Assembly (NCBI GenBank): GCA_951406725.2 | Contig: OX597840.1 | Location: 2,356,001-2,420,000, forward strand | From: Octopus vulgaris | Taxonomy: Eukaryota | Length of the DNA stretch: 64,000 nucleotides | Reading direction: 5' to 3' | Shown: piece by piece, positions 4,340 to 10,006 of the stretch | Layout: the number at the start of each line of letters is the position of its first letter | Numbering within the stretch: position 1 is the first letter of the stretch | Translations under genes and position numbers: made by a program | The notes under the pieces: generated by a model | Seen by the model: the letters and a program-made list of their open reading frames with translations, nothing else | Databases searched by the model: none | Told to the model about the DNA's origin: nothing

Positions 4340-5610
4340 TCCTATAAAGAAAGTATTCTGAATCTGCTTCACTTTCACTACTCTGAATGCACAAGGACTA
4401 AAATTACGCCTTGAAAGAGCGAATAAAAGGACAAAAGAATATCATCAGATTTATACAAAATCATCCACATCTTATTATTCGGTGAAATATTAATTCCCAA
4501 TTTTTGAGGATAAAACGGAATTGTAGTGATATAGCGGCTAACTGGAAGCATGCAAGTGCTCTTGTACATCATTATATCAAACGCAGTTACAGTGAATCAC
4601 GATGAATGGAAATAGCAAATGATATAGCTAAGATTAGAAAACATAGTCAAACTTTCACGCATAATTTTAGTAAACACAATACAATAGATGACAGAATTCC
4701 TTTAGTGATTAAGTTGGCATTTGAAAAGTGTTGCATGAAATTTACTAGCATGTGGCGAAAAAATATCCTCGTTTGAAAGAGATATTTCCTCAACCGCCTA
4801 TTGTAGCCTTTAGACGGAATAAGAATATGAGAGAATTATTGACCTCTATTTCTGACTTCAAGAAAGCGAACATTGGAGTATCTGCACGCTGTAGATACTC
4901 CAATGTAAGGTAACGTAAGCCCTGTTCATTGTGCAACAACATAAGTCAAGTGAATTCCATCAGGAACCATAACAGAAATGTTATGATTTATACAGAAGGC
5001 GGAACATGTAGAGATTCCCATTTGGTGTACGCGGCAGAATGCACGGAATGCAACTTGATTTACGTTGGTTGTACTACAGAACAATTAAACAAAATACTTC
5101 ATGTGCACATATTGAACGTCAGGCACTATAACAGTAGTTTGACAGAACTTGTCGAACATTTCGTTTCAAGCAGCCGCAATTTTGAAGAAGACTTGAAAGT
5201 GCATATTCTCAGCAAATATTCTGAATCTACTTCACTTTCAATACTCAAAATGCACGAGGAGACATGTTTGCCGGTTATTAACATCACTCCCTGTGGGAAT
5301 GAATAAGATGACAGGAGAATATCATCGAATTTACACAAAACTGTTTGATTAAATATTCTTCTTTTTCCTTTTCTTTTTTTCTTTCCTCTTTTTCTGCTGT
5401 CTTTTTTTTTCTGTCTTTTCTTTTCGCCTGTTATAAAACTGGAACTTTAAAACTGATGATGTCATTCCATCAACGTGTGGACGCTGGTTGCTCTTCAAAT
5501 TTTTATCACTTCTTATTTTGCACTTGACAAAGAGACTTCCTGTTGAAATATCGTTCAACTAATAAAATATCAATCGAACCGCACTCTTCGTCTTGACTGT
5601 TTATCTTTGC
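4340..5610 (+). mobile_element. Penelope-like element 3' part: linker, C-terminal GIY-YIG endonuclease, pseudo-LTR
   Basis: KYPRLKEIFPQPPIVAFRRNKNMRELL linker (~4760-4840), KPCSLC, then ORF 4929-5306 with LVYAAECTECNLIYVGCT (GIY-YIG with CxxC). The 3' end is partly duplicated upstream at 4350-4460. Hammerhead and AATAAA at 5520-5566. Confidence 0.85.
5520..5556 (+). ncRNA. Minimal type I hammerhead ribozyme motif (U3-A8 variant) in the Penelope-like 3' repeat
   Basis: gcac-TTGACAA-agagacttcctgtt-GAAA-ta-TC-gttc. Palindromic stem III (ATAT), stem I with one mismatch, weak stem II. Confidence 0.6.
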
Positions 5611-5662
5611 GAAGAGTTACGTCAATCCTTTTAAATTATTGTTATTATCATTGTTGTTGTTG

Positions 5663-5754: not shown

Positions 5755-6297
5755 TTGCCCCACCGACCTCCTTTAGCAAGGAGGGAAAGGCCGTTTTCCT
5801 GTGTCTAGTGGCTGTAGCAAAAGAGGTGGTATGGTGGACCCGTTTGAAAGGTCTAAGGTCAGACACTTTCCTCTTTGGCCAAGGCCTCATCAACTTCTTC
5901 AAGTTTCACTTGAAAAGGAAGGTGAGAGTAGAGAGGGAAGTGCTGTCTGATAGCAAGTTTACTGAAAGGTGGATAAATGTCGCAAGAATGGCCAGTATAA
6001 ATGGACCAATTCTGAGGATATACCTGTAGTATAAAAAAGTATTATAAAAGGAGAAAGGGCCTCTCTAACCCCTTTTGACCAGGCTCCCCTGGCTTTTTGG
6101 GGTTTTTTCCACGAGTAACCTTTCGAAGCGCCTCCCCCTATTGGGAATTTCAATTGTTATATTTTCGTTGTTATCTCTGGAATTTTTACACGTCTTTTTT
6201 TTCGCAAACGGACAAAACCCTTTGTAACTTTTGTCCTGTGTTTTATCCCTCTATGTTTTAATTAATTTTTGTCTGCCCTTGTGACCAATAAACGAAT

Positions 6298-6300
<3 letters not shown>
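5755..6300 (+). mobile_element. 5'-truncated L1/Tx1-like LINE (ORF2 C-terminus and 3' UTR)
   Basis: ...FLCLVAVAKEVVWWTRLKG...RKVRVEREVLSDSKFTERWINVA* resembles Tx1-clade ORF2 ends. AATAAA at ~6287, then a (TTA)n tract. Confidence 0.7.
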
Positions 6301-7299: not shown

Positions 7300-7580
7300 T
7301 TCATAACTGATACTATGGATTCCTGAATCACGTTACAGGTATGACCAGCCTATCTTCGAATTTCGAATTATTCAGATGCCTTCAACGCCTGATCTAGCCC
7401 TTATCAAACTAAATATAGTACAAGCTCCCAAGCATTTTCCTTGCTAAGGTACCTCTTATTTAGACAAATTCTCTCAGTGACATTAGAATATTGGAAGATA
7501 TGTCTACAGAACAGACTCATGTTATTCCCTAAATACCAACACGGTTTATCAAATGAATTGAAAGATTGGTTGTATAATGT
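7300..7580 (+). pseudogene. Possible highly decayed mariner transposase C-terminus
   Basis: FRIIQMPSTPDLAL resembles HPPYSPDLAP. A later segment resembles FY..GI..LV. Heavily disrupted. Confidence 0.3.
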
Positions 7581-7681
7581 CAACATAACGTAACAATCCC
7601 GTAGAGGGAATTACACCACCGCTATTTAGCCCTAGGAAGCATCGACGCTTCCTGTCGGCTTTGACACATTTTCTGTGTCCT

Positions 7682-7824
7682 TATATTTGCAAAGGGGAGG
7701 CAAGTACCCCCACCAGCTAGGATTAGCAACCTGAAGACATGAATGTTTCTGGGTCTTGCCCGTCATCAGTCCAGGATAGCGAGTCCCCGCTAGCTGGGAT
7801 GCCTGCCAAGCCTCTGCAAATATA
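7682..7824 (-). ncRNA. Type I hammerhead ribozyme with long extended stem I
   Basis: Minus strand cctgga-CTGATGA-cgggcaagaccca-GAAA-cattcatg-TC^ttcagg. Predicted GUC cleavage between 7736 and 7735. Stem I extends through ccagctag/ctagctgg, ggcaggcatcc/gggtacttgcc and atatttgcagagg/cctttgcaaatat. Confidence 0.85.
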
Positions 7825-8279
7825 TATATTTACATTAAAATCTAGTCACTGGTTACCGTAATTAGAAATATTGATTTTCTAAATGTCTCAAAGAGACATG
7901 AGCGGTGGTGGAGCGATAGAATTGAATGATATAATCTTTCAAATGATTGGTTGTTTGCTTTTAAGACAAGGGAGAGAATCGCCTTGCAAGAATCTATATT
8001 ACTAATATTTATTCTCTTTGGAGACAGGAAAAACAATACATTTAATTATATATTTGTTAAAATATTCTTTCCGTAAAATTTCGTTTAAATCATTTAACCC
8101 TTAACATTCATATATAGCTGCTATATCAATCTTGTTGGATCTCCTCAGTGCGAAGAAGTTATCGTCTATTAAATATTTCCCCATATTACATTAAATTATT
8201 TTTAACTTTACAAAATGAGGAGGAAGTGTAAGTGGGGCATGTAATAAAAACGTTTCCTGTAGATAAAGAAGAGATAATT

Positions 8280-9285
8280 CTATCTCTCTATCCGCTCAGT
8301 CGAAGTCGACTCTCGGTTACTCGTTGGATCAGTGTCCTCCAGTCAGTTCTATCCTGGGCCGCTTCTTTCAGATTGGCTATGTCCATTCCGGTATCACTCT
8401 TGATGGTGTCAAGCCAGCGGGTTCTTGGTCAGCCTCTTCCTCTCTTGCCACTGACCATTCCGAGCTCCATCTATCTATCTATCCGCTCAGTCGAAGTCGA
8501 CTCTCGGTTACTCATTGGATCAGTGTCCTCCAGTCAGTTCTATCCTGGGCCACTTCTTTCAGATTGGCTATGTCCATTCCCGTATCACTCTTGATGGTGT
8601 CAAGCCAGCGGGTTCTTGGTCGGCCTCTTCCTCTGTTGCCACTGACCATTCCGAGCATGATGTCCTTCTCCAGGGATTCTCTCCGCATAATATGACCGAA
8701 ATATGCCAATCTATGCTTGGTGATCCTAGCTTCTAGCGACATTTTCGGCCTGATCTGCTTAAGAACTTCTCCATTGGTCGGCCTCTTCCTCTCTTGCCAC
8801 TGACCATTCCGAGCATGATGTCCTTCTCCAGGGATTCTCTCCGCATAATATGACCGAAATATGCCAATCTATGCTTGGTGATCCTAGCTTCTAGTGACAT
8901 TTTCGGCCTGATCTGCTTACGAACCTCTCCATTGGTGACCCTCGCTGTCCATGGAGTCAGTAAAAGTCTTCTCCAACACCAATGCACGAATGCATTAATT
9001 ATTTTCTGGTCAGCTTTCTTTAGTGTCCAGGTCTCGCATCCATATGTTGCTATTGGGAAGACAATTGCATTCACCAATCTGCATTTGGTAGCGAGTCTGA
9101 TGTCTCTACTCTTCCAGACCCTGCTCATGCTGACCATTGCCTCTCTGCCTAGTACTGTCCGCCGTTTTATTTCTGGAGTGCAGTCACCATCTCGATTTAT
9201 TTTGGAGTCAAGGAAGATGAAATCATCAACCACTTCGATCTCTTCATTATCGATGTTGATGCTGATGTTTGTTGTGGCTGATGTT
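8280..9285 (-). mobile_element. 5'-truncated RTE-clade (BovB-like) LINE with internal tandem duplications
   Basis: ORFs 8733-9233 and 8512-8742: EIKRR...VFPIATYGCETWTLKK...WCWRRLL..PWTARVTN...YFGHIMRRESLEKDIMLGMVSGKRGRGRPRTRWLD, with an (ATAG)n tail. Confidence 0.93.
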
Positions 9286-10006
9286 GACTATACATTAAAC
9301 TTTACAAAATGACGAGGAAATGTTAGCGGAGCATGTAATAAAAACGTTTCCTGGGGATAAAGAAGGGATAATTACTGTTTAATCACTTCTAACAAGGCAA
9401 TTATATATCATGCACTCTGTCAGTAACTCTGTTTTAGATCAACAAGACCCTTGATTGCCAGGCTAGAAATGGATGTGTTAGAGTGTGATTTAAAGAAATG
9501 ATAATGCCTATTACGCAAGTTCTGCGCCATGTAAAAACTTCCCCTAGAAAGTAATCTATTTTATAATGATCACCATAATAACATATCTAAAAAAAAATCA
9601 ATATCCCACAGAGACATCCTTAAAGTACCGCGTATGATTTATAATTTATACCATCATATGGCACACGGAGTAGCGCTACAATAAGATGTCTGATTATTTG
9701 GTCCCTTCTATAAATGTGTAACTCATTCCAAAGACGCTGTTGACCTCTTACTCACCTTCTATTTCTTTCATCAACGTATTAACATATTTAAAGAAATCAA
9801 TAAACCAGAAAGGCAATCTTAAAGCTCTGCAGGACGTTTATAATTGATAATAACATACGAATCTCTGAGCAGTTCCGCAATAAGATGTCTGGATACTTGG
9901 TAACGTCTGTAAATGTGCTTGTAACTCTGGAGAGGTTGGTAATCTCTCCTTATCTCTCAGTTCCTCACTCATTCACTTTATATTTCTCTGTCATTCACTC
10001 CCCACT

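Follow-up and report, generated by a model that had tools for sequence, protein, structure and literature searches.

The window, a stretch of 64,000 nucleotides from Octopus vulgaris contig OX597840.1, carries on its minus strand a type I hammerhead motif within a non-coding repeat unit. Positions within the unit are numbered along the minus (ribozyme) strand, with u1 at window position 7920; the family unit is 354 nt long. The window copy and its surroundings contain the following features.

7919..7930, minus: probable target-site duplication, upstream copy, 12 bp with 1 mismatch
7566..7920, minus: one full repeat unit, 355 nt here against 354 nt in the family (30-locus alignment)
7827..7920, minus: 5' part of the unit overlooked by the original prediction, hairpins and a long-range strand (folding)
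7682..7826, minus: long rod extending stem I (folding)
7726..7780, minus: type I hammerhead motif, stem I and distal internal loop (pattern, alignment, covariation)
7763..7769, minus: 5' catalytic core CUGAUGA (pattern match)
7750..7762, minus: stem II, 3 bp, with C·A at its base (7762/7750), family-wide (copy alignment)
7736..7749, minus: GAAA core, stem III and C17, predicted cut 7736/7735 (pattern, alignment)
7663..7679, minus: hairpin common to a sister family (folding, sister alignment)
7628..7660, minus: hairpin inside AGCC/GGCU, common to the sister family (folding, sister alignment)
7560..7570, minus: fixed 3' end A, AC-rich, predicted single-stranded (alignment, folding)
7555..7566, minus: probable target-site duplication, downstream copy, 12 bp with 1 mismatch

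The core CUGAUGA (7769-7763) and GAAA (7749-7746), the 6-bp stem I (7775-7770/7735-7730), the 3-bp stem II and the C 7762 facing A 7750 at its base are found where the original prediction had placed them, and the same predicted cut, between 7736 and 7735, is derived again. Stem III had been given 4 bp, which we reject because the remaining loop would be 2 nt; instead, either three pairs are capped by a tetraloop or two ribozymes share a 10-bp duplex. The motif has the attributes of a type I hammerhead (core CUGANGA, GAAA, UH, three stems, helix I open), and the G10.1-C11.1 pair directly closing stem II is absent. The window has a single match to the core pattern and 100 shuffles have none; a looser hammerhead pattern is at chance level. 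Scanning with the Rfam hammerhead models, proposed earlier as a check, gave no match for the window copy or for three further loci. As previously noted, the element has no tRNA head, and no open reading frame longer than 67 aa overlaps it. Stem III of the family is a perfect 10-nt palindrome with a duplex energy of -13.3 kcal/mol, and palindromic stems III are described as permitting dimeric hammerheads (PMC4209133). In the window copy the palindrome is broken by a G to U change at 7742, which weakens the duplex to -2.9 kcal/mol and is the apparent defect of this copy itself.

Alignment of 30 loci sets the limits of the unit at 7920 and 7566. The extent proposed at first, 7585-7826, is too short, as it leaves out ~94 nt at the 5' end and ~20 nt at the 3' end of the 354-nt unit. 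The window copy is ~95% identical to the family majority, with 18 differing sites. A DNA search of the genome (2.8 Gb, 227 contigs) returned 2348 candidates, with 59 matches in the 40 scored. The exact core pattern matches the genome 302 times, another exact unit pattern 48 times and the exact head-to-tail junction 163 times, each with a control of 0. The copy number is thus at least 302 and, by inference, probably of the order of a thousand. As for the tandem arrangement that was to be checked, head-to-tail junctions are frequent, two cores on one strand occur in 2 of 104 insertions, long arrays were not seen in this set, and the window copy is a monomer. Being non-coding and 354 nt long, with a GC content of 45-46%, the unit falls within the range of retrozymes (150-450 bp, GC <50%, type I hammerhead). 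Assembled contigs from four runs presumed to be RNA cover a dimer locus, and are silent on its ends, strand, level and circles.

Folding of 7585-7826 yields z = -5.66, and the rod and three hairpins named by the original prediction appear in the fold. The minimum-energy fold is not the hammerhead, as the core pairs with stem III; the active fold is predicted to lie above the minimum by 3.4 kcal/mol in the window copy and 4.4 kcal/mol in the family majority. The strand 7911-7902 is predicted to pair with 7622-7613 in a long-range helix. A circle of the unit is predicted to be 60-67% paired, in keeping with the high self-pairing of non-LTR retrozymes, with z = -6.0 for the window copy and -9.0 for the majority, whose reverse complement gives -6.6.

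Selection on the ribozyme was assessed from conservation and covariation. In 62 copies taken without selection on core letters, 46 cores are intact, and substitutions affect 13 of 682 core positions against 1011 of 13467 other positions, so that changes in the core are roughly four times rarer than in the remainder of the unit. Stems I and II covary across subfamilies, a check that had been called for. Among 28 copies picked to span subfamilies, 89.5% of hammerhead-stem cells pair, and 25 cells show changes on both sides compared to 6.9 in shuffled data, counts that kinship inflates; the number of covarying pairs in these chosen copies (5 of 15) does not exceed that of shuffles (127 of 500). 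The family keeps both the core and the pairing of stems I and II, the loss of which had been named as grounds for refutation. The C·A opposition had been taken for a possible impairment of the window copy. As a defect specific to this copy, this is wrong: 54 of the 62 copies carry C·A at the stem II base, and it is therefore a family trait. We considered U-A at this position as a selected repair and discarded it, the C-to-T frequency there (17/121) being in the range of other CpG sites. Non-Watson-Crick oppositions at the same place have been described elsewhere: the axolotl HHR_Amex2 has U·U, and is reported to cleave 22% as a monomer and more as a dimer (PMC7229834), and among PLE hammerheads U·U is common in the Hydra clade, with C·A in PLE-X1_cBra (PMC8557442 file S2).

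A sister family, 67% identical to the window family over 153 nt, has at least 429 matches to a core pattern forcing C and A. It displays the same layout, with C·A and two 3' ends ~50 nt apart, and one of its subfamilies has U·U at the stem II base and forms 350-353 nt dimers.

The mode of mobilisation is best visible in the anatomy of insertions, of which we mapped 104, distinct by flank, and then dropped one as a local duplicate. Copies show partial tandems and inverted arms, and their 5' ends are scattered. The outward 3' ends (n=149) concentrate in two bins: site A (u350-u11) has 67 of them and site B (u54-u66) has 63, the other 19 lying outside, which places 130 of 149 at two sites ~55 nt apart. 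In the window, the family 3' end B maps at about 7861. The usual PLE tail is 30-40 nt, and the ~55-nt tail of the unit is longer. The 46 inverted insertions comprise 34 A/B, one A/A, one B/B and 10 with an end that could not be assigned; among the 36 classifiable ones, 34 thus combine an A end with a B end (binomial P about 1e-8). The bins were widened by one base after a first pass, before which there were 33 A/B and 1 A/A among 47. The loci overall are not a random sample; in the subset picked on the core alone, 13 of 14 classifiable insertions are A/B.

Target duplications of at least 8 bp, counted without low-complexity ones, are found in 25 of 46 inverted insertions against a control mean of 5.4 and maximum of 8.2; the duplications of retrozymes are longer than 4 bp. 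Among direct insertions, 13 of 57 have them against a control mean of 7.1 and maximum of 12.4, a weak excess. Most duplications are 11-15 bp long, and many insertion ends run into (TA)n or (TC)n. Published hallmarks of PLEs are duplications of 8-10 bp and paired inverted repeats of which one bears a tail (PMC3846280, PMC8557442); in vitro, a PLE is reported to begin reverse transcription at two internal positions of AC-rich RNA, and to cut and extend both strands of the DNA (PMC11167929). The insertions display what is expected of PLE-mobilised sequences, namely partial tandems, an inverted arm and a one-sided tail from two fixed 3' ends. Penelope-type mobilisation is thus supported by the insertion anatomy and not by the PLE remnant that neighbours the window copy.

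The arms also bear on the state of the template. At loci not chosen on the core, 11 of 44 arms cross the cut site and 2 of 44 have 5' ends at u180-195, with no accumulation of 5' ends at the cut; where arms cross, the template was therefore continuous, which fits uncleaved RNA and a religated circle equally. In a test of a single RNA source, arm-to-arm differences within an insertion are not clearly lower than those between loci. Unit-length copies were dismissed as proof of a single circle round, as too few loci, about 2 among the first 30, begin at u1. At one locus, an inverted duplication has both arms stopping at the predicted cut site (u183/u184), and both continue into near-identical unrelated sequence.

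We interpret the locus, with a probability of roughly 0.8, as a full-length, ~5% decayed monomer of a 354-nt non-coding hammerhead repeat, likely a non-LTR retrozyme mobilised by PLEs. Of the originally proposed cephalopod retrozyme-like monomer, the retrozyme assignment stands (the repeat is dispersed and non-coding, with a conserved, covarying hammerhead), while the boundaries do not. The best reading is that of a non-LTR retrozyme as a non-autonomous Penelope-like element. The ribozyme strand would be transcribed from source copies longer than one unit, and the hammerhead would cut the transcript, probably as a dimer via the palindromic stem III, into monomers that probably circularise. A PLE protein with RT and GIY-YIG domains would act in trans, cutting both strands of AT-rich DNA ~11-15 bp apart, and reverse transcription would start within the RNA at sites A and B, generally one for each DNA end. 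The window copy itself is probably a dead end, because it has one core and a poor dimeric stem III. Against this reading stands the predicted position of the active fold, 3.4-4.4 kcal/mol above the minimum: the ribozyme is predicted to stay free in most circles of animal retrozymes (PMC7229834). Also counted against it are the missing Rfam match, the scarcity of insertions with two cores, the number of covarying pairs, the weak duplication excess of direct insertions, the ~55-nt tail and the absence of sequence kinship with the unit at 60 PLE loci. Of the frog retrozymes predicted, 1 of 9 is reported to have cleaved (bioRxiv 10.64898/2026.07.22.740005).

On this reading the family is a member of a class already known from coral, mussel and amphibian, with reported lengths of 220-245 nt in coral, 350-390 nt in mussel and 330/350 nt in axolotl (PMC7229834). 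It shares with the metazoan non-LTR retrozymes described there the type I hammerhead, the size, a GC content below 50%, the lack of an ORF, a highly paired predicted circle, duplications >4 bp and coexistence with PLEs, and its size and GC of 45-46% fit the mussel and axolotl retrozymes in particular. Unlike them, it is found less in arrays than as monomers, partial tandems or inverted pairs (two cores in 2 of 104 insertions), its core is predicted to be sequestered, with C·A at the stem II base, and its circle is a predicted one. A close parallel for the mismatch at the base of helix II is axolotl HHR_Amex2 (PMC7229834), likewise predicted to work better as a dimer; there the opposition is U·U instead of C·A, and the unit has a 3-bp stem III with a 10-nt palindrome. 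With PLE pseudo-LTRs and tails (PMC3846280, PMC8557442, PMC11167929) the unit has in common the partial tandems, the inverted 5'-truncated arm, the tail at one end, two start sites, AT-rich or (TA)n targets, duplications of ~10 bp and a hammerhead upstream of the start sites. It differs from PLEs in having no RT or GIY-YIG ORF, in the ~55-nt tail, in start sites that lie ~175 and ~230 nt downstream of the cut, and in a full canonical-size hammerhead on a long rod. The hammerheads of Hydra-clade PLEs and PLE-X1 (PMC8557442 file S2) resemble it in an extra unpaired nucleotide on both sides at the stem II base and in the palindromic stem III; unlike the unit they sit in ORF-bearing elements, and their sequences were compared by three short motifs.

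Two Penelope-like remnants had been reported within 6 kb of the hammerhead. One is confirmed by a GIY-YIG match at 4914-5303 (E = 0.0066, below the Pfam cut-off), and the second was not located. The confirmed remnant (window 4606-5632, plus strand) is 5'-truncated; of the two 3' ends seen in its family it has the longer, followed by an (ATT)n tract, and it has no sequence kinship with the hammerhead unit. Its nearness means little, because the family has 8788 genome candidates and its own two 3' ends. The genome also contains autonomous PLEs with 781-residue open frames comprising RVT_1 and GIY-YIG. This family shows ends of its own, (TA)n targets, a ~40-nt tail and a minimal hammerhead-like motif of U3-A8 type, and its protein is a candidate for in vitro work.

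One alternative, which we consider unlikely, is that the unit is the solo pseudo-LTR of an undiscovered autonomous PLE, its copies being 5'-truncated and any independent RNA life secondary. Every insertion hallmark is indeed PLE-type, Hydra-clade PLE hammerheads are often U·U, a PLE from Chara carries C·A, Octopus bimaculoides is among the species listed with a Hydra element (PMC8557442 files S1/S2), frog retrozymes are described as looking like pLTRs (bioRxiv 10.64898/2026.07.22.740005), and one dimer lies ~100 nt from a truncated PLE. However, what precedes u1 is not an ORF but the 3' end of the unit itself, as the 163 exact junctions attest, and duplications bound many insertions at the unit's own ends. 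Nor do copies adjoin Penelope ORFs as a rule, an association that would have made the element a terminal repeat. In a scan with two query proteins, both from outside the Naiad and Hydra groups, PLE ORF matches lie within 3 kb of 4 of 104 loci, at differing distances and orientations and with no recurrent join; one of the four is a plain insertion into a PLE remnant. The unit was found to flank an RT plus GIY-YIG ORF at none of 60 PLE loci, being absent from 30 loci of the neighbouring family and from 30 other GIY-YIG loci, as well as from 6 longer stretches of the family with intact frames. The two or three PLE families compared have no terminal sequence in common with the unit, and three unit motifs are absent from the Naiad/Chlamys/Hydra supplement (PMC8557442), where line breaks could mask a match. 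The resemblance of one short hairpin to the 5' ends of Naiad elements is at chance frequency and was rejected. The dimer just mentioned is the longest direct insertion (749 nt, 2.1 units); it ends at an unusual u69 in the same orientation as the 5'-truncated PLE, by chance adjacency or template switch. We did not retain it as a template-switch chimera, since no bounding duplication is readable.

Improbable too, in our estimate, is a PLE-mobilised repeat whose hammerhead is a weak or dead relic kept within a structured RNA. Such a relic would agree with the non-Watson-Crick stem II base, with an active fold predicted not to be the minimum, with arms that traverse the cut site, and with a lizard PLE for which hammerhead cleavage is reported dispensable for insertion in vitro (PMC11167929). 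It is harder to reconcile with a core about four times better conserved than the rest, with compensatory changes in stems I and II, with retention of the core in a sister family of 67% identity, and with the reported cleavage of an axolotl retrozyme that has U·U at the same place (PMC7229834). The two-ended anatomy largely refutes a third reading, to which we give very little credence: a SINE-like element moved by the APE-type LINE machinery. The unit is short, non-coding and 5'-truncated, with target duplications, and the genome has very active LINEs, but the unit shows no tRNA head, no match to Pol III box patterns and neither poly(A) nor a LINE-like tail, whereas tandems in circular permutation and a pair of fixed ends are characteristic of PLEs.

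Other copies of the family, though not the window copy, adjoin a nested element of ~1.65 kb with one ORF that contains a zinc-knuckle (below the Pfam cut-off). In both the window family and the sister family it adjoins the 5' side of the hammerhead core, 0-30 nt upstream. Among the best 30 of 345 candidates for its 3' end, 19 continue into the window family and 3 into the sister family (22/30); among the best 30 matches to its 5' end, 18 are preceded by the window family and 7 by the sister family (25/30). The two sets overlap, both being best matches to the nested query. These proportions, which apply to best-scoring copies, lie above the >20% of flanks in one repeat given as a criterion in PMC4494074. 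Several nested copies have 15-20 bp duplications, one 5'-truncated copy with a duplication lies between two stretches of the unit, and duplications of 14-17 bp also flank two off-target copies. Across 19 loci the nested 3' ends differ on average by 6.6% and their host units by 16.1%, without correlation between the two (rho 0.08, P 0.32), which argues for repeated insertion and not for one founder. The element was likely placed by targeted insertion at the ribozyme, and some copies look as if they later moved as composites with A or B ends.

ORF1 of an APE-RT-zf-RVT LINE matches the nested ORF at 34% identity (E 5e-32). The element has no RT of its own and is putatively of Tx1 type. Elements are sometimes tandem within one target, and no ORF2 was found downstream of one such tandem. 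In one nested copy, a stretch ~100-130 nt upstream of the start region may resemble the U1 snRNA 5' end, possibly a chimera or an insertion into a U1 copy. Tx1 LINEs targeting other repeats are known, and comparators include Tx1 into Tx1D, Tx1-Mar into Mariner-N4 and Keno into U2 (PMC4494074). As described there, they share with the nested element LINE ORF1 homology, an AATAAA end, duplications of ~15-20 bp, tandem copies per target and a strong preference for another repeat. Unlike them, the nested element would target a ribozyme-bearing retroelement and has ORF1 only, and our literature search for a LINE targeting retrozyme-like elements found none. If it truly targets hammerhead DNA, it represents a new kind of target for sequence-specific retrotransposons. 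The whole may even form a three-tier parasite stack, a conjecture we regard as somewhat more doubtful than not: a circular hammerhead RNA, a Penelope-like dimer copying it with one start at each of two internal sites, and a LINE lineage specialised on retrozymes, which would insert at a fixed spacing upstream of the hammerhead core in two families of 67% identity. In such a stack, the LINE would borrow the retrozyme's transcription, its ribozyme-made RNA end and its Penelope-driven mobility.

Since the class itself is known, our main finding is its extension to cephalopods. In a search of the literature on octopus retrozymes and hammerheads we found no description of the window family; Repbase, Dfam and the supplement of PMC7229834 lay outside this search. 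In a 2026 repeat annotation of Octopus vulgaris, neither ribozyme nor retrozyme occurs as a word in the main text (PMC13282606). For 35 species, none of them a mollusc, retrozymes have been argued to derive from PLEs as non-autonomous elements (bioRxiv 10.64898/2026.07.22.740005). PLE mobilisation of animal retrozymes has been argued from co-occurrence and terminal-repeat similarity (PMC7229834; bioRxiv 10.64898/2026.07.22.740005), and the window family provides the footprint of the Penelope mechanism in about 100 insertions. The evidence for Penelope-type mobilisation of this family is unusually clear; its circles, its partner protein and its cleavage are what we infer from sequence. As a 354-nt ORF-free unit with two mapped start sites, it could serve as a substrate for PLE reverse transcription of linear versus circular RNA, and the near-strict pairing of A and B ends constrains how the PLE protein handles two DNA strands.

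Other mobile sequences were seen in the course of this work. A very young APE-type LINE family has a 1149-residue ORF2, copies 99% identical and 27294 candidates; (TCTA)n or (TA)n follows its 3' ends, and an older relative lies at window 5757-6300. Further dispersed short hammerhead-like motifs have an extra nucleotide before stem II and resemble published PLE minimal hammerheads; no ORF link was found at the loci examined. Finally, window 8201-9373 (minus strand) contains a LINE-like C-terminal ORF fragment with local tandem duplications of 160-190 nt.
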